DNA from: Eledone cirrhosa | Lineage: Eukaryota | Assembly: GCA_964016885.1 (NCBI GenBank) | Contig: OZ024744.1 | Span: 34,720,001 to 34,784,000, forward strand | DNA length: 64,000 nt | Reading direction: 5' to 3' | Shown here: piece after piece, positions 7,070-62,097 of the stretch | Layout of the letters: every line of letters begins with the position of its first letter | How positions within the stretch are numbered: position 1 is the stretch's first letter | The notes under the pieces: generated by a model | Seen by the model: the letters and a program-made list of their open reading frames with translations, nothing else | Told to the model about the DNA's origin: nothing | Database searches by the model: none | Translations under genes and position numbers: made by a program

Positions 7070-7257
7070 ATTTGTTTCTACTTTAGGCACAAGGCCAGCA
7101 ATTACCCAGTTCATTACTGGTACTTTATTTTATCGACCCCGTAAGGATGAAAGGCAAAGTCAACCTCGGCGGGATTTGAACTCAGATCGTAAAGGGACGT
7201 AACTATGCTGGAAAGCATGGCGTCCGACCCTCTACCGATACTGCCAATCCACCGCCA
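7070..7257 (-). mobile_element. tRNA-derived SINE (abundant family). Diverged relatives at ~6430-6550, 6600-6720, 7300-7400
   Basis: Essentially the reverse complement of 58095-58283: Pol III A/B-box-like head, ttgcctttcatccttacggggtcgataaaataaagtaccag core, agtagaaacaa tail. Confidence 0.85.

Positions 7258-7574: not shown

Positions 7575-7580
<6 letters not shown>

Positions 7581-9259: not shown

Positions 9260-9265
<6 letters not shown>
7575..9265 (-). mobile_element. Penelope-like element 3' remnant (GIY-YIG + AT-rich 3' region) between two (TA)n tracts
   Basis: CNCRIKSNCSLQNNCLDKNVIYKC...YSGATSTKFKERWYNH...CNLCIEE is a degenerate GIY-YIG domain. (TA)n at 7497-7574 and 9265-9311. Confidence 0.8.
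7623..7677 (-). ncRNA. Minimal type I hammerhead ribozyme motif
   Basis: Minus strand UUUAU-CUGAUGA-aagcguaccaaa..uuugauacccuu-GAAA-UAUAUA-UA-AUAGA. Stems I and II pair. Lies 3' of a PLE endonuclease remnant. Confidence 0.7.
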
Positions 9266-16961: not shown

Positions 16962-17070
<109 letters not shown>

Positions 17071-17185
17071 AACGGGCTGTGACCCTGTCGCGGGACCACC
17101 AACACGGCCAGTCTGTGGAGCTAACATTGCTAGTAACTACAGACTGTCCTACTTCCTCTCCCTGATCATACGCCCCATCATTGAG

Positions 17186-18937
17186 ATGTCCCCAGATGTA
17201 TTTGACAGCACGGAGGACCTCCTCAGCAGAATCGGCGTGAGAAACCGATCTGGGGACCTAACAGACTGCATAATAGGCAGTATGGATGTTGTGTCCCTGT
17301 ATCCATCTATTGACGTGGATTTTGCTGTGGAGAAATGCGTAGAAATGATCAGCGAGAGCAAGGTTGAGTTCCGTGGGATTGATACCAGTGAGCTGGGAAT
17401 TCTACTTAAGCTTACCCATAGTAATAGTTACCTAGACACTTATGACCTTAGCAACCTGTGCCCTACAAGACCAGCAAGAGGCAGACCACCTACCATTACC
17501 TCAATGGCCAAGAAAACCCACACAGATAGATGGAACGGGTGGACCAGAGCCATACGGACACCCGAAAACCACGATGAACTGAAGAAAATGATTGCACATG
17601 CGGTAGGGGCCAGCATAAAATTAACCCTTAAGGAACATATGTTCAAATTTAATGGTAAAACATATGCCCAAGAGGAAGGAGCAGTCATTGGTGTTAGCAT
17701 TGCAGGCGACATAGCTAACTTATTCATGGTATGGTGGGACAGTAGACTTAAACAAAAACTTAAAGAACAATTAAAAGACAGCTTAACCCTGATAATGTAC
17801 TCCCGCTACGTAGATGATATAAACATCGTAGTTAAGACACCCCCACTAAAGAACAGTCAGGAACTAGAGAAAAACACAATGGAAAGCATCCAGCAAATAG
17901 CAAACTCCATCCACCAGAGCATTAGAGTTACTATAGACTACCCAAGTAGACACCCCAACCATCGATTACCTGTACTAGACACAGAGCTCTGGTTAGATAC
18001 CATTAACAACCAAAAACAAATCCTCCATTCCCATTACGCCAAACCCATGACTTCCAAACATCTGATCCACCGAAACTCGGCCATTTCGGACCATACCAAA
18101 ATCAACATACTGATTGCGGATTTGGTACGGGTGATGAGAAATGTGTCCCGCATGTGCAACCCCGAAGAACTAGAGAGACACATACAACACTTCATCCACC
18201 GTATGCAGTTCTCTGGCTACAATCAGAGCGATAGAATCAGAGTGTATAGAGGAGCCAGAACCAAATGGGAAAAAATGGTAAATAATGACATAAATGGGAC
18301 CTGCCCCTTGTATAGGAGCAAATTTTGGAATAGAATAAAAAGAACTAGGAACAAGGCCAATAGAATAAACTCATGGTATGATAACAATAAATACCAGAGT
18401 GTAATGTTCATCAATACAACCCCTAGAGGCGAACTAGCCTACAAATTTAGAAGGGCCCTAAATAAACATAAACTCAATATTAAGATAGTAGAAAGACCAG
18501 GTACCTCCGTAAAAATACTTATTAGCAAGACATACCCGTTCCCAAAACCCTCATGTATAGATAAGAAATGTATAACCTGTAAAATAATCCCCCATATTAA
18601 CTGTAAAACTAGAAATGTAGTGTATAGCATAAGATGAACTGAAGGACAATGTAGAAACAAAAATATAGTGTACATAGGTGAGACAGCTCGTAGTATAGGG
18701 GAACGAATAAATGAACACTGGCTAGACCTTCAAGATAATAAAGAATCATCTGTGCTCTACCAACATGCTAAGATAGAGCACAAGGGCAAATTAGAGAACA
18801 TAGAAATAAAAATAGAATCCGCACACAGAAAAGATGCAATGTTTAGGCAAATTACAGAGGCAGTAAGCATAAAAGAATTACAACCAAAATTAAATAGAAA
18901 ATATGAGTGGAACAGCAACATCACAACTTACAATTAA
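17186..18937 (+). pseudogene. Penelope RT-GIY-YIG polyprotein with a single in-frame TGA at 18635-18637
   Basis: GSMDVVSLYPSID, YAQEEGAVIG, YSRYVDD, LPVLD, CxxxxCxxC, NVVYSIR*TEGQC...VYIGETARSIGERINEH...RQITEA. ORFs 17186 and 18668 are in the same frame. Confidence 0.9.
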
Positions 18938-19153
18938 GGACAGAATGAAAACACACACACACATAGAACAAACAACCAACCAACAACATGTAAATAAATA
19001 AATAAATAAATAAACAAATAGATAAATGAACACAAACACACACAGACACCCGGATGTGGCGCATGCGCAAACTGAGCACACAACACACACACAAAAACAA
19101 AATGGCGTAGGACAGAGGAAAGGAAAGGCACAGAAACAAAGAAAGGAATCCCC

Positions 19154-19198
19154 AGTCACTGAAGAGGTCACAGAGTGTGTGACGAAAGGACTATGACT
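19154..19198 (+). ncRNA. Minimal type I hammerhead ribozyme motif in Penelope pseudo-LTR
   Basis: AGUCA-CUGAAGA-G-GUCACA gagug UGUGAC-GAAA-GGAC-UA-UGACU. Stem I is 5 bp, stem II 6 bp, stem III minimal. Confidence 0.8.
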
Positions 19199-19416
19199 AT
19201 ATATAAACAACTATCTGGTTGTGGAACCAACCAACCAACCAGAAATTTATAAGTTTGTAGATTTGTAAATTTATAAATTTATAAATATATAATAAATTGA
19301 AGTGAAAGCAACTGGTGCGTGTGTTTCTTATTGGCAACATGACCCTCCCAAAGTATAACAATATCGGTTTCAACACACGATTTCAGATAAAGAATCTTGC
19401 TAAACAAATTCAGAAA

Positions 19417-19505
<89 letters not shown>

Positions 19506-19587
19506 TATATTGTTATATTTGGGGAGGGTCATATTTGCGTAATATTGCCAGAATTAATAATATAAGTATATAAATATTTATATATAT

Positions 19588-19780
19588 GAAAAGAGTCAAG
19601 ACCCTGACGGCAGAGCTCAAGCCGTTTCGACGGCTATTTCTGGTCCAGAAATAGCCATCAAAACGGCTTGAGCTCTACCGTCGGGGTCTTGACTCTTTTC
19701 CTATTACCCACTCTACTATCCAAAGTATCGAGTACTCTGGTGCGTTATGGTCCACCTGGTTCCTTACCACACTTCCTTCG

Positions 19781-19783
<3 letters not shown>
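19588..19783 (+). repeat. 113-bp palindrome (19588-19700, centre 19644) plus unique tail, bounded by TA-rich tracts
   Basis: gaaaagagtcaagacc...ctatttctgg-t-ccagaaatag...ggtcttgactcttttc, with few mismatches. Confidence 0.9.
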
Positions 19784-19857: not shown

Positions 19858-20020
19858 TTCTACAGGACTAGAACTGTTTCATTCGAAGGAAATCTTTCCT
19901 GGTGATTTCCTCCGAATGAAACAGTTCTAGTGCTGTAGAATCCATTTCTATATTAATTATTTATACTCTGCTATGTATTGAGTACCTTACTTACTGTGGT
20001 TACCCCCGATTGAACCTGGG
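19858..20020 (+). repeat. Hairpin (arms 19858-19894 / 19904-19940) plus tail, after (TA)n
   Basis: ttctacaggactagaactgtttcattcgaaggaaatc / gatttcctccgaatgaaacagttctagtgctgtagaa. Confidence 0.85.
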
Positions 20021-20459
20021 ATACACACACACAGAAACACACACAAACACACACACACATACACACACACAGCTTTCATTATATAAAATCTCCCCATTTT
20101 ACCTCATTTCTCTCCGTTTGAGGCACTTTTTTCATGGTACTCCCGTTTGGGTTTTTAGAGGTTAGCAGGTCTATGAAAGTGCCCCCTCCTTCATGTGTAA
20201 GGTTAATTAGTCTCTAATACTTAAACACCTCAATGAATGGATAAAATAAGATAACACTCAGAAAAGCAATATTTACATATATAATAATCTCCCTAACATG
20301 GTTTCGTCGGCGAAAGATCAATTTACTGTAAATACCAATATTTGAAGAATCCACAATACTGTTCAGGGAAGTTTATTCTTCAAGACCTGAGGCTCTATTG
20401 ATCATGAAATTATACATACCGTTTCCATTGTTGGGGCGACAGGCTGTCCAAAATCACGT

Positions 20460-22555: not shown

Positions 22556-23139
22556 ATGCCGATTTTGTTCCGTTTTCTGCGGTTGAAAGTACGGTGAAGT
22601 TATAAATTCATTTAAAGATATATACATATTTAAATGAATTGGTGATTTTGCCGTACTTTTTACGCACACACACACACACACACATATATATGTATATATA
22701 TATATATATATATATAAAACTAAAAATCAGTGATGCATCTGAACTCAATTTATTGTGTGTTACAATTGTTTCGCCGGCAGACAGCTCGAGACGTGGTCAT
22801 TGTGCGGATCTGTCTGATTCTGGACCCGCAGGTTCGACGGACACGTCTAATGATTTCGGAGCATATTCTCAGTGAGAATATGTTTTTTGGGGGCCCGGAG
22901 AGTGGAGAGCCGTTGGTCTTTGCTGTAAAGCAAACAATTATTATTATATAAAAACTGAACTGGAAAAGTCAACAGTTGACATGATTTTGATTTTGTATCA
23001 GTACTGACGGTTATATATATAGATATGTATGTGTGTGTTTGTATGCATGACTGTTGGTGTGTGAGTGAGTGTGTGTGTGTGTGTCGTGAGTGTCAATAAG
23101 AGTTTTTGTTTTGTTTTGTTGTTTATGACCATGCTGTAA

Positions 23140-26388: not shown

Positions 26389-26559
26389 TATATATATATA
26401 TATATATATATATAAATCAGGATTGATTCAGTTAGAAACTGGTAAGACCATTACTCACCAGAATACTCAATATTTAGGGTACATATATAAAAGATCCTGG
26501 AACTAGCTGTTGGAAAGGCAAGAGCTCAGCCGTCTGAGTCCCGACTTTTTCATATATAT

Positions 26560-28003
26560 ATATATATGAAAACAGGGAGAAAGAGAAGATTATTAGGAAG
26601 AAAAAAATTTTTTTTTTCCTTTTTTGTCTCTCTCTCTCTCTTTTCTGGGTTAGAAAATGATTAAAACGAAATGTTTTACTTTGTGTGAAGTGTTAAGGTA
26701 TTAGTTGATTAATTTATTATTTAAGAATGGCATTTATTTATCTATTTATATATTTAATTATTGTCTATTACCGGTTTCTGCATTTATATACATTATCAAA
26801 TGATAGTGAGATGTATCAGTGTGGTGTCGCACATGTTACACAGAAGGTGCAGAAAGAATAATGTTATTTACAAACAAGGTTTATGAAGTGTAAAGAAAAA
26901 AGAAAAAAGAAAAAAGAAAAAAGAAAAAGAGAACGGACATAATGTAGAGCATAAAAAGTCAATGTGGAAGAAAAAATAATGTTATTTACAGGCATAGTTC
27001 TTGAAGTTAAGCAGTTCAAAATGTGTTAATATAGCAAGAGTACTTAGTTGATCCATGATTCCATGAAGGAGGCAAATGGTGGACTGAGGTTTGATATGAT
27101 TTCCCTTTTTAGAGAGTTAATATGCAGGGGGAAGCAATTCTTGCTGGATGATATTTAATTTATTTAAGAAAAAGGGTTAAGTAGGGTGTGAGGCAGGTAA
27201 CTTTGTAAATGTTTGATTGTTGCAGTTTTAGATTGGTCCGATTTTTAGAGCATTAAGTAGGGGTTGGAAATTGTTAATGAAATGTGTTTCCTTATTGGTA
27301 CGTTGGATGAAAGTAGCGTTGTCTATGAATTTGTAAATGGGGAAAACTTTAAAGTTTGGATGTTGGTTGTGAGCCCAATTGGCGATATGTTCACTAAATG
27401 CAATCTTTCTGTATTCCTGTATTTTAATTTGTGATTTATGGACGGTCATACGTTGTCGGAGGCTGTTTTTTGTCTGTCCTATGTAGTGCTCTTGACAACC
27501 TGAGCAGGTCAAAACATAGATTAGGTTTTCAGATGCACATGTAAAGTTGTGTTTAACTGTGAAACGCTGTCCTTGTTTAAAATGTAATGTTGAACCTGCT
27601 ACACACGACTAGAAGAATTAAAAAACACACTTATCAGCAGAAACTACCCACCATCTCTAATCAAAAAGGGATTCCAACGTGCCCTAAAACTAGACATCCA
27701 GGAACTCAGACACCCCAAACGCAGGAATGAACCGCAACAAAAAACTCTACCATACATCTCCACACACAACCCCCTCAGCAATGAGGCATTCGACACCATC
27801 CTCCAGAACATTCCTTTACTAAAAAGAGACCCAAGAATGAACAAAATCCTCCAAACGCACAACATCATAAAGAGCAAAAGACAACCTAAATCCATAAAAA
27901 ACATCCTCACACAAGCCAAAATCCAACAAACCCTCACAATGAACCCTACAGTAACAAAATGCGGAAGGCCCAACTGTGGCATATGCATAAATCTAATAGA
28001 AGG
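26560..28003 (-). mobile_element. Penelope-like element 3' part with inverted 5' segment (27598-28003 on + strand)
   Basis: Minus strand gives FTCASENLIYVLTCSGCQEHYIGQTKNSLRQRMTVH (GIY-YIG). Plus strand gives RNYPPSLI...LPYISTHNP...RQPKSIKNIL...KCGRPNCGIC (thumb/linker). Confidence 0.88.
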
Positions 28004-28206
28004 GAATCTGAAAAGGTAACGGGCGAAGGATTCAAGAGTACACGCTTTGTCCGTTCCCATGTCGATTCAATTTGGATTGCCTCGGAAACATAACCTTATT
28101 ATGTAAGAAGCTGTCTGGTGATGTCACGGCACTGGGCACACCGAAGCGTGTGGCCTCTGTCGTCATTGAAATAGTATCACAGCATTATCATTAAAAGACT
28201 TTAACA

Positions 28207-29263
28207 TCTGAAACTACTTCGCTTTTTCTTATATATATATATATATATATCTATATATATATTAGAAGTTAGAAATTATAAGCTTTCACCGTATTTTAGA
28301 CTAAAGAAATTTCTAGCCTGATAGTGGGGTTTATAACCCTCGGAGAAATGGAAAAAGATGAGTGTTGCCGTACATGGGAGTCGAACCCACATCTTTGGTT
28401 ATCCAGACCACTGTGCTACCATTACACCAATACACATCCCATCTCCTTCCATTCGAATTAGAAGCTATGAACTTAGCAAGTGAATGATAAACAAGCAAAT
28501 TATAAACGTAAACATGTAAGTATGTTTTTGAAACGGTGCGCGAATTTGAAATTAGAAGTTAGAAATTATAAGTTTTCACCGTATTTTAGACTAAAAAAAT
28601 TTCTAGCCTGATAGTGGGTTCGACTCCCATGTACGGCAACATTCATCTTTTTCCATTTCTCCGAGGGGTTTATAACCCCACTATCAGGCTAGAAATTTCT
28701 TTAGTCTAAAATACGGTGAAAGCTTATAATTTCTAACTTCTTATATATATAGATATATATATATACATATATAAGAAAAAGCGAAGTAGTTTCAGGTTTA
28801 TAACCCTCGGAGAAATGGAAAAAGATGAATGTTGCCGTACATGGGAGTCGAACCCACTATCAGGCTAGAAATTTTTTTAGTCTAAAATACGGTGAAAACT
28901 TATAATTTCTAACTTCTAATTTCAAACTCGCGCACCGTTTCAAAAACATACTTTCATGTTTACGTTTATAATTTGCTTGTTTATCATTCACTTGCTAAGT
29001 TCATAGCTTCTAATTCGAATGGAAGGAGATGGGATGTGTATTGGTGTAATGGTAGCACAGTGGTCTGGATAACCAAAGATGTGGGTTCGACTCCCATGTA
29101 CGGCAACACTCATCTTTTTTCCATTTCTCCGAGGGTTATAAACCCCACTATCAGGCTAGAAATTTCTTTAGTCTAAAATACGGTGAAAGCTTATAACTTC
29201 TAATTTCAAACTCGTGCACCGTTTCAAAAACATACTTACATGTTTACGTTTATAATTTGCTTG
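28207..29263. repeat. Nested tandem + inverted array of a ~290 bp unit containing an internal tRNA-like cassette
   Basis: Unit starts attagaagttagaaattataag at 28261 and 28551. 28207-28388 mirrors 28615-28796, and 28797-29200 mirrors 28261-28680. Confidence 0.9.
29035..29105 (+). pseudogene. tRNA-like Pol III cassette (mirror copy at ~28365-28435, -)
   Basis: A-box tggtgtaatggtagcac, B-box ggttcgactcc, tggt/acca anticodon-like stem, oligo-T 10 nt downstream. Acceptor stem imperfect. Confidence 0.75.
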
Positions 29264-32451: not shown

Positions 32452-33378
32452 ATGCCCTATCTAAACAAAAGAAGCAGCACTCGGTGCGGTCCTACTGGAC
32501 GGGGCGGTGTTCTAATTCCACTTGAACCACTGAAGGAAGGTCATCGAATCGATCCACAAGAAAGAATTTTCCTAGAAGCAGCAGAAAAGGGAGATAAGCA
32601 CACTATGATACGATGTTTGCAAGGCCCAAACCCTGTAAATGTTAATTGTACGAACATGCTAGGTCGATCTGCCATACAAATTGCTGTGGATAATGAAAAT
32701 ACAGAAATAGTAGAGCTCTTGCTGAAACAAGAGGGTGTGAAAATTGGAGATGCAGTACTGTATGCTATCCGTGAAGGTGTGTATAAGATAGTAGAGATGT
32801 TGATTGATCACCCAAGTGTTACACGGGGAATGCTTGGATCGGAGTGGTCTAAAACGAAACATGGAAACGAAGAGAGTTCAGACTATTCCCCAGATATATC
32901 ACCCGTTATTTTAGCTGCCCATTGTAACCAATTTGAAATTCTTCAGTTATTACTTCTTCGCGGTGCCACCATTGAAAGACCACATGAACTGTCTTGTTCT
33001 TGTAAGAAATGTCAAGAACATGTTCACGAAGACAGTCTCCGACATTCTCTGCTGAGAATTCACACATACAAAGCATTAGCTAGTCCTGCGTGGATATCTT
33101 TGACAAGCCTCGATCCCATTTTAAGTGCTTTTAAATTATCGTGGGACCTTGCAAAAAAGGGATTAAAAGAAAATGAATTCAAGGATTTATATTTCGACTT
33201 AGCAATGCAATGCAAGCGATTCGCGTGTGATCTATTGGACCAATGCCGGAGCAGTGAAGAGGTAATTGCTGTATTAAATAAAGAAACATCTTCTGATGAG
33301 GAGGAAGAGCCGAGCTCAAGTGGAGAGAAACTTACTTTAGCACGATTGAAACTAGCTCTGAAATATGAACAGAAACAG
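32452..33378 (+). CDS. First large coding exon of a canonical transient receptor potential (TRPC-family) channel: ankyrin repeats + TRP_2 region
   Basis: ERIFLEAAEKGD, VNCTNMLGRSAIQIAVDNEN, DISPVILAAHCNQFEILQLLL, PHELSCSCKKC, DSLRHSLLRIHTYKALASPAWISLTSLDPILSAFKLSW, ENEFK, LARLKLALKYEQKQ. Acceptor ttttgcag| at 32427, ATG at 32452, phase-0 donor |gtatgt at 33379. Orthology not assignable by eye. Confidence 0.95.
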
Positions 33379-36310: not shown

Positions 36311-36474
36311 TAAGCAAACAGACAGGCATATAGATAGATAAACAGACAGACACAGATAGAGATACAGACGGATAGATAGTACGAGTGTACGAGTATTTGC
36401 TGTACGTGTCGAAGCTCGTGCAAATGTTTGTCTTGTAGTACAAGTAGAAATTTGCAGTGCGGGTGAGTTTCATA

Positions 36475-37520
36475 CAATTGTTTCTTATATAGGGCACAAG
36501 GCCAGCAATTTTGGGGTAGAAGAAAGTTGATTTAATCGACCCCAATGCGTGACTGGTACTTTATTTTATCGACCCCGTAAGGATGAAAAGCAAAGTTAAC
36601 CTCGGTGGGATTTGAACTCAGATCATAAAGGGCCGTAACTCTATACTGCAAAGCATATTGTCCGACGCCCTACCGATACTGCCAATCCGCTGCCCTAGTT
36701 TCATTAATAAAACTAGTTTACATATTTCTTTTATATTCTACGTTTTTATAATAGTCATTTTCCTTGTAACTACCCCTTTTCTGTTTTAAAACCCATAAAA
36801 AATGATTTTTGTGTTGTTTTCGGGGGCTGGAACAGATTATATATATTTCAATTAATTTCAATGGGGAAAATTGATTTGTAAAACAGATAAATCGTAAAAC
36901 AAGCTCAGATATGGAATGAATTAAACTTATACGGCGAGATATCACTGTATTCTAAAGATCTATCAAAAGTGATTTGAAAAGAGCAGATGTTTTAGAAAAG
37001 ATAAAAAATAGCAAAATATGGAATGATTTCTTTGGCAGTCTTTTTTTATATAACTCTTATCCAAGGTTGAAAATTTAGCTTGTAACATGTCGTTTTAGAT
37101 CATTATACTTGGGTGGTTGATTGGCAGTATTGGTAGGAGGTCGGACGTCATGCTTTGCAGCATAGAGTTATGGTCCTTTACGTTCTGGGTTCAAATCCGG
37201 CCGAGTTTAACTTTGCCCTTCATCCTTGCGGGGTCGATAAAATAAAGCACCAGTAATGCACTGGGATTAATTGCTGGTCTTGTGCCAAAAGTAGAAACAA
37301 TTATATTTGGGCAGTAGATTGGCAAAATCGGTAGAGTGCCAGCCAAAATGCTTTGTGGCATTTAGTTACGACATTTTAACGTTCAAATCCCGCCGAGGTT
37401 AACTTTGCCTTTTATCCTTAGGAGTCGATAAAATACGACACCAGTAACACAATGTGGTCAACTTAATCAATTTTCCCCTCCCTCAAAATTGCTGGCCTTG
37501 TGTCTAAATCAAAAACTATT
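36475..37520. mobile_element. Cluster of tRNA-derived SINEs: 36475-36693 (-), 37112-37303 (+), 37310-37520 (+)
   Basis: Same core as 7070-7257 and 58095-58283. Confidence 0.85.
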
Positions 37521-37904
37521 ATATTTATAATTTTGTTTGACTGCTGTAGCAATATTACGTGATTAATAAAACCTTGTATCATAAATATAATGAGCTGTCG
37601 TTCCCACCAAAGACTATTGCAACGGAATCATATTTTTTGTCTTTTTTTTTTTTTTAGACTGGAATGAGTGTTGCTTCCTTCTCTCTATCTCTCTCAATTA
37701 TTTACATTTTCAGTTTTATTAATTTCTCGTTACTTTCCATTCTTTCTTTATCTCTCTCTATATACTCATATCTCTCTCTCCCTCACACACATTCTTTCTT
37801 TCTTTCTTTTTATCCCTCTCTATATACTCATCTCTCTCTCTTTCACACACTCTTTCTTTCTCTCTTTTTTTCTATCTTTCTTACTTCCTTTCTTTATCTC
37901 TCAC

Positions 37905-38945
37905 TATATACTCATCTCTTTCTCATGGGAACTGTGCCGTTTTCTGACTTTGTGAGCATGCCCACGTGTGTTAGACACATGGAAATCAAAAAGATACTCA
38001 GGGTTGTTGTTGGCAAGATGGTTAACAATTTTGTGGGTGTTTACCAAGTCAGTTGCCAGGCGTCGGAGCTTCAATGTATCCATGCCCAGGGAAGCAAGGC
38101 GTTCAGAGTATGGTAGATGTCTGATGGAGGGCATTCGCTTGGTTGCACGTCTCTGAACAGTTTCCAGAAGGTCAATATTCTAAGCAAGATAGGGGTTCCA
38201 GACTGGTGATACAAATTCTAAGTGTGGCCGCACCATAGCTATATAATGCTTTAAATAGATAGCTGGAGAGCGGCTGACAAAGGTCTTGCTGAGTGATGCT
38301 AAGACACCCTCGGCCTTGTTGACAATTTTAGAGACGTGCTTCGTCCAACAGAAATTGCTGCTGACTGTAATGCCCAGGTCACGTTCACAAGAAGACTTCT
38401 TGATATTAGTGTTGTGGAGGGAGTATGTGGATGCTGGGTTTTTACTCCCAAAATGCATGGTGGTACACTTGTACACAGCCAGCTTAAGTTGCCAGTCCGT
38501 GATCCATTGCTGCATTGTGTCCAGGTCTGATTGTAGGAAAGATCTATAGTGTTCAGGATCTGTCCTTTTTATCTCAAGGTACAGCTTGGTGTCATCTGCG
38601 TATTTCAGTACTGTGGCATTCTTTAAGTTGGCATCTATGTCATTAATATATGCCACAATCAAAAGGGGGCCAAGAACAGATCCCTGTGGTACATCAGATG
38701 ACATCTCATAGGGTGAAGAATGCTGTCCTAGAACCGTGACTACCTTTCTTCGACTGAGAATGAAGGACTTCAACCAGTTAAAGAGATCATCCTTCACACC
38801 CATTGCAGAGAGTTTTGCCATAAGTCTTTTGTGTGGCCCAGAATTAGAAGCTTTAGCAAAGTCAAGGTAAACAACATCCTCCCATGACCCGCCATCAGTG
38901 ATTCGGGTGATGTCTTCAAGAAACTCAATAAGTTGATCACAACAG
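37905..38945 (-). mobile_element. CR1/L2-group LINE RT 3' fragment
   Basis: VVYLDFAKA, VPQGSVLGPLL, KYADDTK, ERDLGI, VRPHLE, YSERL...LKLRRL, NTRGH. Confidence 0.9.
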
Positions 38946-39457
38946 CTGGAGAGGGGCCACACCAAGTGAGAGATATTACATAGATAGAGAGAGAAAAGAG
39001 AACGCCGTGTGTTTTCGAGGTGACAAAAAGAGGCAGATAGACAGAAATGTATGACTTCACCCTCATCTATATAGAGAGAGGGGGAGCACCAAGCTAAAGA
39101 GAGAGAAAGCGGAACAATTTGTTTAGAGAGAGAGTGTGTGTGTGTGTGAGAGGGATAAGACGACGTTGCCCTCATCTAGTATAATATAATAAAATGTGTT
39201 GCAGACAAGACTGAGTTTTTTATCATGTGTAGAAGGAAATCTAAATATTGAAATGATAAATGGGAAAGGAGAGATTTAGAAAAAAGGTAAAAGAATGTAT
39301 TGAACTATATCAATGACCCAAACTTAGTTTGTCATGACACTCTTCTACAATATTCCAAACATTACTGAACCTATACTTATATTTTAATAGCCTCAAATAC
39401 ACACATACAGACACACACACAAAAGTAAAAGTTCATTTAGAATGGGAATATATATAT

Positions 39458-39885
39458 AATTGTTTCTACTTTTGGCACAAGGCCATCAATTAGTCAGTAC
39501 ATTACTGGTACTTTATTTTATCGACCCCGTAAGGATGAAAGGCAAAGTTAACCTCGGCGGGATTTGAACTCAGACCGTAAAGGGACGTAACTTTGCTGGA
39601 AAGCATGGCGTCCGACCCGCTTCCAATACTGCCAATTCACCGCCCATATATATATATAATGGTTATATATATATATATAATGGTTCCTGATTTAGACACA
39701 AGGCCAACAATTTTGGAAGAGAGGAAAGTAGATTAAAGCAACCCCAGTACATTACTGGTACTTTATTTTATCAACCCATAAGCATGAAGGCAAAGTTAAC
39801 CTCGGTGGGATTTGAACTGAGAACGTAAAAAGCTGTAACTCTATGCCATAAAGCATATTGTCCGATGTTCTACCGATTCTGCCAA
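39458..39885 (-). mobile_element. Two tRNA-derived SINE copies (39458-39645, 39680-39885)
   Basis: Same family core and tail as 7070-7257. Confidence 0.85.
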
Positions 39886-40674
39886 TAATAAAATTGTATT
39901 TTTAAATAATTTTGAAAGAAATCAAGAATTAGGAGAGATTTAATGATATAAACAACCATCTCACTATCAAGTTGGTGTCTGAGGGGCATAACTTAATAAA
40001 GGTTCTTACATATAATTATGATGGAATATTTTTAGCTGGTGCAGTCATGTGCCAGCTTCAGCATTTAATGATCAGAAGAAAGGAAGTAGGTCTAGAAGCC
40101 AAACTCGTTATCTTTCAATTCAGTTTCATGCCAACTCTTACCTATGGTCATGAATCTTGGTAATGACCAAAAGAATTTGATCAGGAATACAAGCCACCGA
40201 AATGAGGGTCCTCGTAAGTGTCTTTGGAGTAACGTTACTCAATAGTGTGTGTAGCTCAGAGATCATAGAGTCACTGAGACAGAGCCACTACTTCTCCGAA
40301 TTGAGAGATCACAGCTCTGATATTGTGGGCATGTAGTTAGACTGTCCCAGGAAAAACCAACTGGCAAGGAACCCAAGAGTAGACCCCGAGCAAGATGGTT
40401 GGATAATATCCATAAGCTTGGCTGGTCATGCTTGGGGATCCAGCCGGATTAGTTGGAGACGGTTGCTTCTGACAGGACCCATTGGAAGGAGTGTTTCAGC
40501 ACTCTGCCCCCACAAACCTCTCAGGTATAAATGGGTGAAAAAGAAGAAGATATTTTTAGATAAATATAAACATTTTAGAATAAACAGCTTTATATTATAG
40601 ATTCAGGATTAGTTTCATGTAGTTTCGTATCAAAAGGGTTAGATATAAAATTTTATTGAAAATTGCTTGTGGAA

Positions 40675-41532
40675 CCAAACTGAACCCTAGTTCCTCCTTT
40701 TTACAGTAAACAGGACTATTTAAAACATGTTGCCATTCTTCCTATGATTAAATATAAAAATATAATCATCATTTGAATTTGAGTTCTGTCCAACCAATAC
40801 AGCCAATGGAGCAAAATCTATTACTGTAGACGTAGAAGAGATAGAGAAAGCACAGCATATCTATGGCCTAATATAAGTTTTTTTTTTTAACCCACTTCAG
40901 AAAAGATCACCACTCTTCAATTGATACTATACTACCCAATGCCAGATTTACCATTGTGCTTAGGTGTGCTTAAGCACAGGGCACCGTTAGCCAGGAGTAG
41001 GGGCCCATCTTGCTGCCAAAAAATTTTTATGATGAATTTTCAAATATTTGGGGCCTCATAACTTAACTAGAACAGGGTCTCATTTGTCCTAAATCCAGGA
41101 CTGATACTACCCCTAACTAACCACCTGAGAGATAGAAATCACAAATTAAGTTTTGCAGTTCTAATGGGGTGATCAACAGATTGGTGGCTAATTATCAGAG
41201 CTTGTTACATACAGCTTTAGTATTTGGTCTGGCTCACTGCATTCTGTCAGAAAGAAAGATTTTTGGAGGAAATCATTAAGGATGAATCGACCCTTTCCTT
41301 TCCTCTTTCCTTTTAAAGTCTGTCTACAACATATATTAGGCCATAGATATGCTGTGCTTTCTCTATCTCTTCTACGTCTACAGTAATAGATTTTGCTCCA
41401 TTGGCTGTATTGGTTGGACAGAACTCAAATTCAAATGATGATTATATTTTTATATTTAATCATAGGAAGAATGGCAACATATTTTAAATAGTCCTGTTTA
41501 CTGTAAAAAGGAGGAACTAGGGTTCAGTTTGG
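40675..41532. mobile_element. Non-autonomous DNA transposon with ~200 bp near-perfect TIRs and 8-bp TSD TTGTGGAA
   Basis: TIRs 40675-40873 / 41334-41532. ttgtggaa at 40667-40674 and 41533-41540. Confidence 0.85.
40937..41103. mobile_element. hAT-type MITE nested in the previous element, 8-bp TSD ATACTACC
   Basis: atactacc-caatgccagattta ... taaatccaggactg-atactacc. Confidence 0.8.
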
Positions 41533-42000
41533 TTGTGGAATCTATTAGAAACAGCCGGTTCAACAATCAAGAAGAAGCCATTTTGGGGGGTAACAGAAAT
41601 GGAAATGGTTGGGGATGGGTAGAATTAGACAATACATAAACACAAATTTTAAGGAACCAAGAAGGACCCTTAAATATTTGGTACCCTACTTAAAACGAAA
41701 CAAAAAAAAACATTCAGTCCCCGTTAATTTTTAGAGTAGCTCACCACTACCACCACGACCACCACCACATAGATACACATACATACATACGTACATACAT
41801 ACATACATATATACATACATACATACAAACATACATACAAACATACATACATACATTCATACATACATACATACAAACATACATACAAACATACATAGAA
41901 ACATACATACGTACATACATACATACATACAAACATACATACAAACATACGTACATACATACGTACATACATACGTACATACACACACACATACATACAT

Positions 42001-42598: not shown

Positions 42599-43033
42599 GT
42601 AAATATATATACATATATATAGATATATATATACATACATATATATATACATACATATATATATATATACATACATATATATATACACATACATACCTAC
42701 ATATATATATACACATACATATATACATATATATATATATACATACATATATACATATATACACATACATATATACATATATATATATATACATACATAT
42801 ATACATACATATATATATACATATATATATACATACATATATATATATACACACATACAAATATATACATATATATAGAGAGAGAGATTTTGAGTATATG
42901 TTGGTTGTATACCAACACCTCAGTATGCAGGCTGGAGCACTCGACGAAGTGCGCAGGTTGGTTTGGTTACTCCGGAGTAATGTAAAATAAAGTAAAATAA
43001 AAGTCAAATGTTTAAAATTTAGCTTCGTTTATT

Positions 43034-43088
43034 ACTGCTATATATATTTCGGTGACAGCCATCTTTGGCTGTGACCTCTTCAGGCAGT
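43034..43088 (-). ncRNA. Minimal type I hammerhead ribozyme motif (same family as 29990-30045)
   Basis: ACUGC-CUGAAGA-GGUCACAGCCA aaga UGGCUGUCACC-GAAA-UAUAUA-UA-GCAGU. Compensatory C-G/U-A change in stem II relative to the 30 kb copy. Confidence 0.88.
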
Positions 43089-44962
43089 CCGAATTAGTGT
43101 GGTATAGACAGGTGTGGTATAGACATATGTTGTTGAGGTGTATAATTTTGTCAATAGTCTGATATGCCCAGTTCCTGGTTGAGTTGTTATTTCACTGAGG
43201 AAATGGAATCATATGAATTCAAACAAACGAATTTCAGCGTCAAAGGGCCTCTTCTCCCCTCATTGGTCAGTTGTTAGAACATTCCTCATTCAAAAGTCTA
43301 TAGAAGTTCATTCTGAGGCAAGCCAATCTGTAGTTGTTGTTCTTGTTATTGTTAGGTACATCTGACCTCAATTCTTGTGTTGGTAGTGTTGTTATTGTTG
43401 GAGTTAGCTTAAAAAATTGATAAATTGGTAAAAGGAACAAGGTGGTAAAGGAACAAAATAACAAAAAAATGTCAAACTTCCCATTAGTCAGTTTTGAGAG
43501 CATTCCTCAGTCAGAAGTCTGTAGAAATTCTTTCTGGGGTGAGGCTCCCTGTAGTGTTTGTGTATGCTATTGTTAAGTACATCTGACCTCTACCTTTATT
43601 TTGGTAGTGTTGTTGGTGTTGTGGTCAGCTTATGTCTTGCTGCTGCTGACAATTTAGAAGTATCTGTGTGTGTATTTTCTTCATCCCTCCTGCCACCATC
43701 TCCCGTGGTGGTGGCTGGGGGGGGGGGGGGTTCTTCCATGTATATGAAGAAATATAAGGCAATAAATGAAGAAAACAGAAAATAAATAATAAACAGAGAA
43801 TAAAGAATAAATGAAAAATTGGTGAAAAAGTAATGAAAATGAATATGGAGAAGTGAGAAATAAAGTAGCATAAAGTGTGTGTGTGCTATAACCAATCTCA
43901 AGGTCGGAACTATGTTGGATAGATTGGTATGAGGGACAAGATGTTAAAATAATAAAAGAATAAAGGAATAAGATAATCAAACAAAATGTGTTTGTGTTAT
44001 AATCAATCTCAACTTAAAAATAAATATAAGGTGATAAAGTGAAGAGAACAGAAAACAAATAACAAATTAATAAAGAGAAATTAAGATTTAAAATTGGAAA
44101 TTGAAAATCAGAAATCAAGTAAATTAAAATGTGTTTGTGTTATATAGATGTTGGCCAAATTATAATGGCTGTGTCCGATAGAATCTCTAAGCTATCATGG
44201 TGTCCGCTCAGACTGGGTTGTTCCCTATGGCTTGAGGGGAGTTCTCAACCTAGGGTGTTGTTACTGCCCATATAGCTTGAGGGAGGTCTGGCCGAGAGGT
44301 GTCTACATGTTCAGGAGAAGTCCCTATAGCTTGAGGGGAGTTCATATCTTCTTGTGATGCTACTGTCCATATATTTTGAGGAAGGTCCCGGCTCTAAGGT
44401 GTCTGCATGTCCCGAAGAAGTCGGTTCTGAAGATGTGAACTCCTCTCAAGCTATAGGGACTTCTCCTGAACATGTAAACACTTCTCGGCCAGACCTCCCT
44501 CAAGCTATATGGGCAGTAAACAACACCCTAGGTTGAGAACTCCCCTCAAGCCATAGGGAACAACCCAGGCTGAGCGGACACCATGATAGCTTAGAGATTC
44601 TATCGGACACAGCCATTATAATTTGGCCAACATCTTTATAACACAAACACATTTTAATTTACTTGATTTCTGACTTTCAAGTTCCAATTTTAAATCTTAA
44701 TTTCTCTTTATTAATTTGTTATTTGTTTTCTGTTCTCTTCACTTTATCACCTTATATTTATTTTTAAGTTGAGATTGATTATAACACAAACACATTTTGT
44801 TTGATTATCTTATTCCTTTATTCTTTTATTATTTTAACATCTTGTCCCTCATACCAATCTATCCAACATATTTCTGACCTTGAGATTGATTATAGCACAC
44901 ACACACTTTATGCTACTTTATTTCTCACTTCTCCATATTCATTTTCATTACTTTTTCACCAA

Positions 44963-45065
44963 ATCCCGCCGAGGTTGACTTTGCCTTTCATCCTTACGGG
45001 GTCGATAAAATAAAGTACCAGTAATGCACTGGGTAATTGCTGGCCTTGTGCCTAAACTAGAAACA
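44963..45065 (+). mobile_element. 5'-truncated SINE with 16-bp TSD inserted in the right palindrome arm
   Basis: attactttttcaccaa at 44947-44962 and 45066-45081. The left arm shows the empty site (ttggtgaaaaagtaat, ~43819-43834). Confidence 0.9.
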
Positions 45066-45896
45066 ATTACTTTTTCACCAATTTTTCATTTATTCTTTAT
45101 TCTCTATTTATTATTTATTTTCTGTTTTCTTCATTTATTGCCTTATATTTCTTCATATACATAGACCCCCCCACCACCACCACCACCACCACCACCACCA
45201 GCACCACTACCACCAGAGATGGTGGCAGGAGGGATGAAGAAAAAACACACACAGATACTCCTAAATTGTCAGCAACAGCAAGACATAAGCTGACCACAAC
45301 ACCAACAACACTACCGAAATAATGGTAGAGGTCAAATGTACTTAACAATAGCAAACACAAACACTACAGGGAGCCTCACCCCAGAAAGAATTTCTATAGA
45401 CTTCGGACTGAGGAATGCTCTCAAAACTGACCAATGGGAAGTTTGACATGTTTTTGTTATTTTGTTCCTTTACCACCTTGTTCCTTTTACCACTTTATCA
45501 TTTTTTTAAGGTAACTCCAACAATAACAACACTACCAACACAAGAATTGAGGTCATGTGTACCTAACAATAACAAGAACAACAACTACAGATTGGCTTGC
45601 CTCAGAACGAATTTCTATAGACTTTTGAATGAGGAATGTTCTAACAACTGACCAATGAGGGGAGAAGAGGCCCTTTGACACTGAAATTCGTTTGTTTGAA
45701 TTCATATGATTCCAGTTCCTCTGTGAAATACATATATATATATAGATACATATATAGATACATATATATACATACATATATATATATATATATATACTTA
45801 CATATATATATATACGTACATATATATACACATATATATACATACATATATACATATATATACACATATACATACATATATACATATACATACATT

Positions 45897-46530
45897 TAGG
45901 AGCCCCTACATGGACACACTAGAAGAGGAAGACCAAGGTTAGCGTATGTTGATGCCCTAAGGACAGGCACTGGTCTATTGGAGACGCAGGACATGGCAGC
46001 GATAATGAGGGACAGAGACCGCTGGAGAGAACTCGTCCATGGATCTCAGGAATTTTACACGCCTTAGAATAGAATAGAATACATATATATACATATATAT
46101 ATATACATATATATACATATATATACATACATATATACATACATACATATATATATATATACGTACATATATATATATACATACATATATATATATACAT
46201 ACATATATATATACATATATATATACATACACATATATATATATATACATACATATATATATACATATACATACATATATATATACAGAGGAGACTGAGG
46301 TTAGCTGGACATGCTCACCAACATCCAGGGTTTACATTACACTCAGTGCTCCTGTGGAGCCCATGCATGGACACACTGGAAGAGGAAGACTGAGGTTGAC
46401 ATATGTTGATGCCCTAAGGACAGACACTGGTCTGTTGGAGATGCAGGACATGGCAGCGATAATGAGGGACAGAGACCGCTGGGGAGAACTCGTCCATGGA
46501 TCTCGGGAATTTTACCCGCCTTAGATAGAT
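45897..46530 (+). mobile_element. Two copies of a short LINE-like 3' end (45897-46080, 46287-46530) in TA/CA microsatellite
   Basis: Shared gatgccctaaggacag...gagggacagagaccgctgg...aattttacacgccttag with (AATAG)n or (AGAT)n tails. RTE-like C-terminus. Confidence 0.6.
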
Positions 46531-46558
46531 AGATATATATACATACATATATATATAA

Positions 46559-46604
<46 letters not shown>

Positions 46605-46670
46605 TCTTACATATATATAAACCTATATATATACACATACATATATATATAGATACATATATATACATAC

Positions 46671-46701
<31 letters not shown>

Positions 46702-46930
46702 CATATTTCGTTTCTGAATTTGTTTAGCAAGATTCTTTATCTGAAATCGTGTGTTGAAACCGATATTGTTATACTTTGGGAGGGTCATGCTGCCAATAAG
46801 AAACACACGCACCAGTTGCTTTCACTTCAATTTATTATATATTTATAAATTTATAAATTTACAAATTTACAAACCCATAAATTTCTGGTTGGTTGGTTGG
46901 TTCCACAACCAGATAGTTGTTTATATATAT

Positions 46931-46975
46931 AGTCATAGTCCTTTCGTCACACACTCTGTGACCTCTTCAGTGACT
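46931..46975 (-). ncRNA. Hammerhead motif, identical to 19154-19198
   Basis: Reverse complement agtcatagtcctttcgtcacacactctgtgacctcttcagtgact. Confidence 0.8.
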
Positions 46976-47096
46976 GGGGATTCCTTTCTTCGTTTCTGTG
47001 CCTTTCCTTTCTTCTATCCTACGCCATTTTGTTTCTGAAACAAAATGGCGTAGGATAGAAGAAAGGAAAGGCACAGAAACGAAGAAAGGAATCCCC

Positions 47097-47141
47097 AGTC
47101 ACTGAAGAGGTCACAGAGTGTGTGACGAAAGGACTATGACT
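47097..47141 (+). ncRNA. Hammerhead motif, identical to 19154-19198
   Basis: agtcactgaagaggtcacagagtgtgtgacgaaaggactatgact. Confidence 0.8.
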
Positions 47142-47203
47142 ATATACATATATATACACACATATATATACATACATATATACATATACATACATATATA
47201 TAT

Positions 47204-47285
<82 letters not shown>

Positions 47286-47333
47286 ATGAAATGACAGGAG
47301 GCTGGATTTGTGTAAATCCTTGAAAGGTTTATT

Positions 47334-47391
47334 ATACTATGATCATTTCAATGACCGGGTTCCGTATGAATCCGGTGATATCATCAGGTAT
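47334..47391 (-). ncRNA. Hammerhead-like motif (left arm)
   Basis: AUAC-CUGAUGA-uaucaccgg...ccggucauu-GAAA-UGAUCA-UA-GUAU. First stem II pair is a non-canonical U.U. Confidence 0.65.
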
Positions 47392-47594
47392 TCGAAATAT
47401 AATACGTGAATGTAATAGGTAAAATCCATGGGGCTGAAAATCGAGACCCGAGGGCGACCACTATTCTGTTCCTTCAACCTCAGCCGGTCGCCCTGGAACC
47501 GGCTGAGGTTGAAGGAACAGAATAGCGGTCGCCCTCGGGTCTCGATTTTCAGCCCCATGGATTTTACCTATTACATTCACGTATTATATTTCGA

Positions 47595-47652
47595 ATACCT
47601 GATGATATCACCGGATTCATACGGAACCAGGTCATTGAAATGATCATAGTAT
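47595..47652 (+). ncRNA. Hammerhead-like motif (right arm)
   Basis: atac-ctgatga-tatcaccgg...caggtcatt-gaaa-tgatca-ta-gtat. Confidence 0.62.
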
Positions 47653-47843
47653 AATAAACCTTTCAAGGATTTACACAAATCCAGCCTCCTGTCATTTCAT
47701 TATAATATTTAACTCCGTAATAGCACCACCAACTACAAAAACAAAGACGGTTGAACTGCTTTACGTTGAGTACTCTCTATATTATTGCATTACGATTGAC
47801 CATACGGAATAGACCAGCTCTATACAGTGGTGAACCTCAAACC

Positions 47844-47903
<60 letters not shown>

Positions 47904-47934
47904 CATTTATATACACATATATATATATACATAC

Positions 47935-48670
47935 GATGATGCATCTTTTTCTTCACATCATGAAAGTGGCGACAATGTGCAGACGACTCGCTGACTGGAT
48001 CTTGAAGACTTTCCGGACAAGAGACTGAGACACCATGTTGACACTATGGAGGACATTTGTCCTAAGCCGCCTGGAACTGCTCCCAGTTGTGGTCACCCCA
48101 TAGTGTCAAACTAACCACGGAGCTTGAGGTAATCCAGCGAAGCTACACCAACAGGATTGCCAAGATGAAGGAGATCAGCTACTGGGAGAGGCTAAAGGAA
48201 CTGTACCTCTACTCCTTGGAACGAAGACGGGAGAAATACGCAGTGATCTACATGTGGAAAATCCTGGAGGGACTAGCACCAAACTTTGGCATTGGGAGCT
48301 GGACCAACCGTCGAACAGGACGTCACTGTGTGGGGCCAAAGGTCCCATCTTCCACATCTAGAATAAGGAGCAGGTATTGCAATAACCTGGGATTCAAGGG
48401 CCCTCAACTCTTCAACAGGCTGCCGAGGGATCAGAGAGATTTGTATGACGTAGAGGTGAATGTCTTCAAGAAACATCTAGACACCTTGTTATCCAGGATC
48501 CCGGATGTGCCCACAGCAAGGCACGAGGGAAACCTGAGGGCAGCAGCAACAAACTCCCTCTTACACAAGTGGCCAACCTATACAGGCTGGAGATAAAATG
48601 TGTAGCAACAAGGGCGGTACCCCTGCATGGCCTCAGCCGGATGGCTGAAACAGGTAAAAGAGTAAAAGAG
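47935..48670 (+). mobile_element. CR1-group LINE 3' fragment with (GTAAAAGA)n tail
   Basis: LWSPH...LEVIQRSYT...SYWERLKELYLYSLERRREKYAVIYMWKI...GPQLFNRLP...FKKHLD...IPD. Confidence 0.85.
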
Positions 48671-59683: not shown

Positions 59684-59756
<73 letters not shown>

Positions 59757-59761
<5 letters not shown>

Positions 59762-60001
59762 ATACTTTGGGAGGGTCATGTTGCCAATAAGAAACACACG
59801 CACCAGTTGCTTTCACTTCAATTTATTATAATAAATTTATAATAAATTTATAAATTTATTATAAATTTATTATAATAAATTGAAGTGAAAGCAACCGGTG
59901 CGTGTGTTTCTTATTGGCAACATGACCCTCCCAAAGTATAACAATATCGGTTTCAACACACGATTTCAGATAAAGAATCTTGCTAAACAAATTCAGAAAC
60001 G

Positions 60002-60005
<4 letters not shown>
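59757..60005 (+). mobile_element. Penelope 3'-tail fragment with inverted duplication (palindrome 59757-59945) within (TA)n
   Basis: 59875-60005 matches 19290-19420. 59757-59830 is its reverse complement. Confidence 0.9.
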
Positions 60006-60202: not shown

Positions 60203-60252
<50 letters not shown>

Positions 60253-60857
60253 AATAGCATTGAATCTATGAGATTTTGAGGTTATTTATTTTGAGAACAA
60301 TACCTTAACATCAGTATGAGTGACCAGTTACAGCCGGTTTGAACAGAAAGAAGTGGGAGGATCCTGGCCGGATATGGCCAGTTTAAATACTAATAGATTA
60401 TAATTAAAACTTTATATAATTATTTAGAAAGCAAAAAAATGTTTGTATTATAGCTGAATTTATCAATTTCTATTAAAATTAATCTATTTAGATACAACCT
60501 CAATTTGATGAAAAGTTATATCGAAGGAAGATTGTAAAAAGAAAAAAATAATCAGAGAAAATAATGGAGGAAGATATTAACTTATTTAGTCATATAGTCT
60601 AGATTGTTTTAAAGAAAATAGAAAATCATTTAAAAATTAAATATAAAGGAATAGTACCTATCTTATATTATTTTATTGTTTTTTCTTATATATATATAAC
60701 ATTTAATTAAAAATTAAAATGTATTCAAGAATAAGTAGAGGTAAGAATTAAAACTATATATAATAGAATATCTATTAATTATGTAAACTATTTTAAAACT
60801 TAACTAAAGACTCTATGGAATGATTTTGAGAAATGGTGGAGGGGTGAACTAAATATC

Positions 60858-61640
60858 TCAGATTTTTTTATTAATAATTAATTTTATATTCTTAAGAATA
60901 TAAAAAATTTCAGTGGTACATAAGTTACAGCCTTTGAAATGGAAGAATTTATATAAGAGTTTTTGCCAAGAAAGAGAATATTTTATATCTTTATTTTTAA
61001 TTGACCAAATTAATTCAGATAAAACAGTACAAAATCTCTTATCCTCTCTCTTAAACGTGTAGCAGTGATTATACCATCTTTCCTTAAATTTTGAGGAAGT
61101 AGCACTTATATAATTATAAGACTTATCTTTTGTTTTGATAATGCATTGGTAAACTAGTTTATGGTCAAGACAGTTATTATTTAATGGGTAAGAGTAACTA
61201 CAATTGCAATTACCTCCAATGTTATTTAATGAGGCCACTCTGTTTTCATAGTTCGAGTTGTTGGTATAATTGTTGTTAATCGGGGAGTTTATTATACTAT
61301 TAGTGATTGGCTGATTATCATTAGAGGTTAATTCCATATGAATAATTCCGAGATTTTTATTATTAATTCTAGCTATATTTTGGGCAATATTCATACTGGT
61401 TGAGTATGAGAGTTTAATTGTATCCCTATTACAAATTCTACTATATTTATGCGTTTTGGGGAAGCATTTATCAAGAGCATTGAAGAATAGGTGGGCTAAA
61501 CTATTCCTCATTCCAAGCGATAGTGGTGGAGAATACCATAAAATAGAATGAGAGCAGATTCTTTTACTAGGTTTATTAGTTTTATAGGAGTTATATCTAT
61601 TATATGATTGATTTGGTGTTGATGCTATGGATATTGTCAT
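60858..61640 (-). mobile_element. Decayed Penelope-like linker + GIY-YIG remnant (related to 8894-9265)
   Basis: ILWYSPP, CFPKTHKYSRICNRDTIKLSYS, LNNNCLDHKLVYQC, YISATSSKFKERWYNH, CNLCTTE. Confidence 0.8.
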
Positions 61641-61777
61641 AAGATGTATGTGTATAAGTATTTTTATCTATATATTCAATTTTATCAACGTAACCTGCTC
61701 TATTTAATGCACCATTATAATATTTAGCTTATTATCTAAGATTTCCATATATATATATATATATGTGTGTGTGTGCG

Positions 61778-61811: not shown

Positions 61812-62097
61812 TCAAGTAAGAATATTTTCGAAACAGAGAGCGAGTTTGAAATTATTAGAAATGTAAGCTATCGCCGTATTTTGACTAAAGAAATTAAAGA
61901 AATTATTTAGCCTGATAGTGGGGTTAAGAACCCCCGGAGAAATGGAAAAAGATGAGTATTGACGTACATGGGAATCGAACCCACATCTTTGGTTATCCAG
62001 ACCACTGTGCTACCATTACACCAACACATCACCCGTCTTTTACCATTCGAATTAGAAGCTATAATCTTAGCAACTGTAAATGTCAAGTAAGAATATT
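61812..62097. mobile_element. Single diverged monomer of the tRNA-containing unit with 15-bp terminal direct repeat, next to (TA)n
   Basis: tcaagtaagaatatt at 61812-61826 and 62083-62097. Body homologous to 28261-28550 but with a different start point. Confidence 0.8.
61960..62030 (-). pseudogene. tRNA-like cloverleaf (GGA at the anticodon position, atypical)
   Basis: GAUGUGU UG GUGU AAUGGUA GCAC A GUGGU CUGGAUA ACCAA AGAU GUGGG UUCGAUU CCCAU GUACGUC A. Several G.U pairs, U37 and a short variable loop argue against a functional tRNA-Ser. Confidence 0.7.

Follow-up and report, generated by a model that had tools for sequence, protein, structure and literature searches.

Results

The 566-nt palindrome at 47283–47848 is most probably (roughly 80%) a dead, heavily 5′-truncated insertion of a (TA)n-targeting Penelope-like element (PLE), the hammerhead-bearing 3′ end of which was copied twice, head to head. 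It lies in a window of 64,000 nt from Eledone cirrhosa, the window being the whole stretch of DNA that was analyzed. The architecture is an already-described product of PLE insertion: the accessible parts of an earlier study report 5′-truncated inverted copies, one-sided tails, hammerheads in the pLTR and (TA)n targets for PLEs (PMC8557442).

Anatomy of the palindrome

The two inverted arms, at 47283–47488 and 47498–47703, are 206 nt each and 99% identical, with two mismatches (47357/47629 and 47460/47526). The left arm is short and tail-less, with its sense on the minus strand, and its outer end corresponds to an internal TA-rich site where many reads end (47706–47709, run X23). The right arm, delimited by comparison of the arms, is the duplicated, pLTR-like part of a long arm on the plus strand and continues into a single-copy tail of 145 nt (47704–47848, plus strand) that is present on this side only. 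The tail represents the 3′ end of the family, and a contig of run X1 stops at 47849 in TA. Between the arms lies a 9-nt spacer (47489–47497, minus strand), which is part of the short arm and equals upstream sequence of the family in a run X2 contig described below. TA tracts detected with TRF flank the palindrome: a (TA)n/(TACA)n target tract at 47141–47282, also evident in the sequence and common to the neighboring insertion, and a (TA)n target tract at 47847–47929. No open reading frame was found in the 566 nt, the longest stop-free stretch being 74 aa. On re-measurement, the anatomy given in the original prediction was thus recovered in full, namely near-perfect 206-nt arms, outward-pointing hammerhead motifs, a one-sided tail, (TA)n on both flanks and no protein.

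Hammerhead motifs

Each arm carries a type I hammerhead motif pointing outward. The right copy lies at 47599–47648 (+), with a predicted cut after 47648, and the left copy at 47387–47338 (−). The cores have a 4-bp stem I, a long stem II with a U.U at its base, and a palindromic 6-nt stem/loop III. A private C>A change at 47629 weakens stem II of the right copy; the left copy holds the family letter at the site pairing with 47629. The covariance or motif search suggested along with the original prediction gave a divided answer. With a hand-made descriptor, 8 hammerhead-like motifs were found in the window, compared with a mean of 0.05 (maximum 2) in 100 shuffles; this descriptor had been loosened once, after stricter versions missed a motif with an extra base, and the stricter form gave 5 matches versus 0.05 in 40 shuffles. 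No Rfam hammerhead match, however, reached the gathering score, and none was present at E ≤ 10 within 42800–48000 (0/92 matches). Matches to Rfam miRNA families at the palindrome were below the gathering score and were discarded, as they reflect the hairpin only.

In isolation, the focal hammerhead region folded no better than shuffled sequences (z = −0.04 and −1.29). Because the antisense arm would be made first and pair with the ribozyme, the focal hammerhead is predicted to be silenced in read-through transcripts, and forcing its fold within a transcript of either strand cost about 93 kcal/mol. The product of either strand is predicted to be plain double-stranded RNA, with no working ribozyme. 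Of the earlier proposal that a ribozyme-containing double-stranded RNA arises whichever strand is transcribed, the hairpin is retained for any read-through, but the ribozyme would be buried. Since the two focal motifs lie on opposite strands, with one sense motif per strand, no retrozyme circle could be excised and no monomer released. Minimal hammerheads are described as needing a same-strand partner (a cis dimer), and as weak even then, in the available sections of PMC4209133.

A separate observation concerns stem II, in which a C.C mismatch at the fourth pair is common to hammerheads of three otherwise unlike families, with varying flanking pairs. In the descriptor scan, it was shared by the motifs at 47599 (+), 47387 (−), 43083 (−), 30040 (−) and 7672 (−), and it is possibly a conserved tertiary contact.

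A Penelope-like element and its palindromic stubs

A 5′-truncated PLE, here called family A, lies between TA tracts at 17069–19420 (+) and comprises a reverse transcriptase (RT), a CxxxxCxxC linker, a C-terminal GIY-YIG domain and a 3′ UTR with a hammerhead at 19159–19193. It contains one in-frame stop (18635–18637), and its Pfam matches to RVT_1 (E = 7e-5) and GIY-YIG (E = 3e-4) are both below the curated cut-off. The closest relative of the PLE protein of the window was a hypothetical protein from Octopus vulgaris (69%), which points to an octopus as the probable host. The C-terminal GIY-YIG domain and the Cys-rich linker fit Neptune or Nematis, as far as these are described in the parts of PMC8557442 available.

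This element, which has an RT and GIY-YIG open reading frame, is the parent of two of the look-alike palindromes. The stubs at 46705–47147 (−) and 59754–60003 (+) match its last ~330 nt (19095–19420) at 96–100% and share the same 3′ end before (TA)n. The two sequences, which had been listed as unrelated (46705–47147 and 59757–60005), therefore belong to one family. In the 46705 stub, a hammerhead is present in both arms, the center corresponds to parent position ~19095, and the short arm ends in TATATA directly past the hammerhead. The 59754 stub has no hammerhead, and its center lies ~200 nt further 3′ and consists of a self-complementary AT-rich stretch unlike the parent. Both palindromic copies (2/2) thus differ in center and in short-arm end, and the shared ends and center of a fixed-structure, MITE-like palindromic unit were not found in family A. 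At three positions the two arms of the 46705 stub agree with each other but not with the long copy, which is what a single template would produce. A diverged family A fragment at 19511–19545 has its start at the TA-adjoining internal site that is also used by the short arm of the 59757 stub. A second start site, ~57 nt from the 3′ end, may thus be preferred.

Further PLE pieces were observed in the window. Truncated GIY-YIG elements at 7575–9260 (−) and 60250–61745 (−) lie between TA tracts and have a CxCx5C linker like that of the Hydra clade; neither gave a Pfam match nor has an inverted copy in the window. In the 7575–9260 piece, 50 nt separate a hammerhead from the 3′ end.

Other palindromes in the window

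The layout of a short arm opposite a long arm with a tail was seen at all five other places named in the original prediction. The count of six palindromes used here is that earlier set; candidates at 22586–22659, 28262–29210 and 40673–41534 were measured but excluded. The spacers of the six are 0, 1, 3, 9, 9 and 77 nt. Hammerheads are present in both arms of two, only in the single-copy tail of one (42890) and in none of the remaining three, and the presence of a ribozyme in a stub therefore appears to depend on where truncation happened to fall. Short arms end at TA-rich sites in the palindromes at 47283, 46705 and 59757.

A large palindromic insertion at 42890–45730 (−) is also non-coding. 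Its arms (43188–44351 and 44429–45730) are 96.6% identical and are separated by a 77-nt spacer, which belongs to the long arm and continues a tandem repeat there. One repeat lies within one arm only (44963–45073), and the hammerhead is in the tail (43083–43039). The spacer of the 46705 stub probably belongs to the long arm as well. Two small stubs lack hammerheads: 19584–19781 (+), with 59-nt arms and a 3-nt spacer, and 19858–20021 (+), with 37-nt arms and a 9-nt spacer. The former has a relative at 26414–26552, between TA tracts, that is not palindromic, has the same short-arm end and reaches further 5′. No motif common to the tails of different families was significant after multiple testing (best pairs at 13 and 23 of 1000 shuffles, 21 comparisons).

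The excluded candidates are heterogeneous. That at 22586–22659 is an inverted repeat with 78% arms. At 28262–29210, a nested palindrome has arms of 98.6% identity, a 116-nt spacer with TA and a relative at 61908–62073; Rfam detected tRNA-like heads at 28369–28433 (−) and 29038–29102 (+), and the same process may here have inverted a SINE of tRNA origin. The 207-nt inverted repeats at 40673–41534 (99%, 448-nt spacer) lack TA flanks; they are MITE-like or represent another kind of inversion. Additionally, a ~190-nt dispersed repeat, probably a SINE, occurs at 7060–7257 and about ten more places (36472–39886, 44960, 54302, 56892, 58095, 58472).

The focal family in sequencing runs

Sampled words of the focal sequence were present in 14 of 24 listed sequencing runs from 11 studies, and six runs held half or more of them. 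Four of the 24 runs, which may be from other species, were compared with the focal sense arm, spacer and tail. In one X2 contig, 47498–47611 was unchanged and was preceded by 183 nt of other sequence upstream, the last 9 of which are the reverse complement of the spacer. The spacer is therefore a property of the short arm, and the family extends past the center, as expected of 5′ truncation; this continuation was seen in one X2 contig only. In all four runs, depth in the first bin was at most 4/13 of that in the next bin, and no read or contig visibly entered the spacer. In run X3, 1777 contigs matched the arm; their depth was highest over the hammerhead, and their loose ends revealed several subfamilies. 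Of 405 molecules in X23, 112 stop at 47706, and loose ends follow 47708, where the short arm ends, in 205 reads; these clusters may be copies from few loci. Overall, two ends of the focal family were seen in the runs, at about 47706 and at 47849. A single opposite-strand joint was found elsewhere (47631/47806, one X3 contig).

The 99% identity of the arms, together with a center junction that appeared in no read or contig of the four runs, is what a fold-back artefact of long reads or assembly would give. The missing joint is weak evidence, since contigs break at palindromes, raw reads were few (about 45 over the site) and the runs may be from other species. We consider an artefact extremely improbable. 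One private change per focal arm, relative to the family letters in other runs, is in keeping with a real insertion of young age. An independent run also supplied upstream family sequence that agrees with the spacer. Furthermore, the 42890 arms have diverged to 96.6% with an insertion in one of them, and the ends of short arms coincide with TA-adjoining sites that the families prefer.

The same data bear on whether the palindrome could be a self-propagating "inverted retrozyme", transcribed, cut by its hammerhead and remobilized as a hairpin. The density of six palindromes in 64 kb, two of them with hammerheads in both arms, would suit such an element, as would the fact that no hammerhead core letter is affected in the 40 variant rows inspected out of 94. 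The centers of family A nevertheless differ, four of the six palindromes have no hammerhead in their arms, the focal family runs beyond the center, and the ribozyme is buried at the cost given above. One sense hammerhead per strand can neither release a monomer nor form a cis dimer, judging from the available sections of PMC4209133, and this explanation is very unlikely. The original prediction of a system of PLE-mobilized hairpin elements thus keeps its PLE origin but loses the distinct inverted-retrozyme system.

The parent of the focal family

No coding parent of the focal family was found: the window holds no other copy, the exact 23-nt core had 0 matches in metagenome and viral contigs, and 30 of the 183 upstream letters were seen. 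The possibility raised with the original prediction that the arms are simply the 3′ end of an autonomous PLE is borne out for the two family A look-alikes, but not fully for the focal family. The focal stub possibly belongs to an uncatalogued PLE family. In the literature searched, which was mostly open-access, we found no account of the family, of octopus PLE hairpins or of inverted-repeat or hairpin retrozymes, and the family may already be catalogued. The text supplement of PMC8557442, which tabulates octopus Naiads in (TA)n, had no match to a 14-nt piece of the focal hammerhead.

The parent might instead have been a PLE derivative that was non-coding and non-autonomous and depended on mobilization in trans, with the palindrome still a by-product of each insertion. 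Both the focal 566 nt and the 2.8-kb element at 42890–45730 are non-coding, the X3 contigs are numerous and fall into several subfamilies, and non-autonomous PLE derivatives are reported in the accessible parts of PMC8557442 and bioRxiv 10.64898/2026.07.22.740005. A missing open reading frame in a 350-nt stub is, however, uninformative on the parent, because the PLEs of this window have extended 3′ UTRs that do not code either, of ~480 nt in family A and ~1.3 kb at 7575–8894. We regard a non-coding parent as rather unlikely.

Among metagenome relatives, contig L005 repeats the layout of the stubs around a 1005-aa PLE frame, with an inverted 61-nt copy of its own 3′ region at the 5′ side; a hammerhead core is recognizable in this copy by eye, with a stem I too short for the scan. 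It was the only clearly inverted 3′ copy among 37 related loci compared with themselves, many of which are short contigs. The hammerhead scan was passed by 1 of 38 related loci, again including many short contigs, after exclusion of L037–L071 (weak, partial RT matches) except L051 and L063. In another PLE relative (L001:1–6055), direct repeats of 936 nt lie at the termini, long internal repeats have a 21-nt period, and a frame of 1632 aa is free of stops.

Origin of the inverted arms

Given a truncated PLE insertion, two-ended priming is the mechanism that we somewhat favor. GIY-YIG would cut both strands of the TA tract, and each 3′ end would prime reverse transcription, with one cDNA starting at the tail end (47848) and the other at the internal TA-rich site (~47703). 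The two cDNAs would stop no more than 9 nt apart, probably where a single broken RNA ended on its 5′ side, and their joining end to end would yield head-to-head arms, with the hammerhead carried along as a passenger of the pLTR. That both arms are truncated at nearly the same place (spacers of 0–9 nt in 5/6) suggests that both cut target ends primed on one RNA. Two cDNAs would also explain a spacer that belongs to the short arm in the focal palindrome and to the long arm at 42890 and, probably, 46705.

LINE-1 twin priming, associated with Ostertag and Kazazian, reportedly also involves priming of cDNA by both cut target ends, giving an inverted 5′ piece. Its two pieces cover different parts of the RNA, whereas the focal pieces cover the same part twice. 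One PLE with a non-overlapping inversion was observed in the window, where a GIY-YIG domain at 27231–27608 (−) (Pfam E = 4e-8) abuts a thumb and Cys-linker part at 27594–28016 (+); this arrangement has the layout of LINE-1 twin priming, here in a PLE.

In the available parts of the published work, inverted PLE junctions are mostly head to head (PMC3846280), and a purified PLE protein, for which a dimeric state is predicted, cuts both strands and extends them from two start sites (PMC11167929). These in vitro start sites are described as not homologous to the cut DNA (PMC11167929), unlike the TA-rich ends seen here. How PLEs generate inverted ends with a one-sided tail is called undefined in the accessible text of PMC8557442.

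From the same PLE origin, the second arm could also be the product of a single cDNA that snapped back and primed itself, or of self-priming with an antisense strand as template (Arkhipova 2013). Snap-back is the main, though tentative, alternative, in line with the very short spacers in 5/6 palindromes and the self-complementary AT-rich center at 59757, and such self-priming is proposed in the accessible parts of PMC3846280. The extra 9 nt on the tail-less arm would, however, need another template switch, and complementarity at the focal center junction is at most 1–2 nt.

Comparison with known systems

The insertions closest in layout are 5′-truncated EN+ PLEs, which, in the parts available of PMC8557442, PMC3846280 and PMC8969392, likewise have a head-to-head inverted 5′-side copy, a tail at one end, a hammerhead in the repeated end and a (TA)n target. 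The focal stub differs in having no coding sequence, in being a near-perfect hairpin, in a coding parent that was not found, and in its 145-nt tail, described PLE tails being 30–40 nt. It shows four of five EN+ PLE features: a putative type I minimal hammerhead in the terminal repeat (motif in both arms, depth peak across diverged copies), an inverted truncated copy, upstream continuation, and a (TA)n insertion preference as in Neptune, Naiad and Hydra. The fifth, an RT and GIY-YIG open reading frame in the element or its parent, is absent from the stub itself, and no coding parent came up in the searches described above; the frame is present in family A.

In Schistosoma mansoni, Cervera and De la Pena described dual minimal hammerheads on opposite strands, at distances of 100–700 bp, and linked them to truncated PLEs (available sections of PMC4209133). 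The focal motifs (~210–310 bp apart) resemble these pairs in their opposite strands, short stem I, long stem II and palindromic stem III. At the base of stem II, however, the focal motifs have U.U in place of G-C, and an unpaired base following A9 is not clearly recognizable; neither TA flanks nor an arm anatomy is mentioned in the parts describing the S. mansoni pairs. The axolotl hammerhead HHR_Amex2, which is weakly active, shares the U.U at the base of helix II, according to the accessible parts of PMC7229834.

Non-LTR retrozymes, as portrayed in the available text of PMC7229834 and bioRxiv 10.64898/2026.07.22.740005, are non-coding elements of a few hundred nt, with <45% GC, a type I hammerhead and PLE kinship, and in these respects are like the focal stub, which shows the retrozyme trait of a non-coding unit of 150–450 nt with a type I hammerhead. 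Retrozymes are, however, head-to-tail tandems with same-strand hammerheads and circular RNA, whereas the focal copies are inverted and mask each other. At least two same-strand tandem hammerheads were not found in the focal stub, and no direct repeat of the focal unit was present in the window.

Genomic setting and implications

The first coding exon of a TRP-like cation channel was recognized at 32452–33378 (+); it covers the first ~310 of 900–921 residues at 95% identity and terminates in GT. No further exon of the channel was found within the window, and the intron that follows appears to exceed 30 kb. The focal element therefore likely sits in this intron and would then likely give a 206-bp double-stranded hairpin in the pre-mRNA. 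In the presumed intron (33379–64000), an antisense arm masks each of the two sense hammerheads (47102 and 47599), and the one motif left unmasked, at 43083, is antisense, numbers too few for a selection test.

With six palindromes in 64 kb, young stubs are dense enough that center offsets, spacer ownership and short-arm ends can be counted, and such counts would test two-ended priming against snap-back. Intronic hairpins of this kind would be candidate double-stranded RNA substrates. In a bolder and distinctly unlikely scenario, the focal family would be a passenger of PLEs with no coding capacity, and PLE proteins of octopuses would make two copies of one short RNA as a matter of routine, one from each end of the cut TA tract. 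If this were true, thousands of perfect hairpins of 40–1200 bp would be seeded in introns, silencing their own hammerheads and feeding RNA editing or small-RNA pathways. The stubs would then record dimeric two-ended priming and constitute a major unrecognized source of double-stranded RNA in cephalopods.
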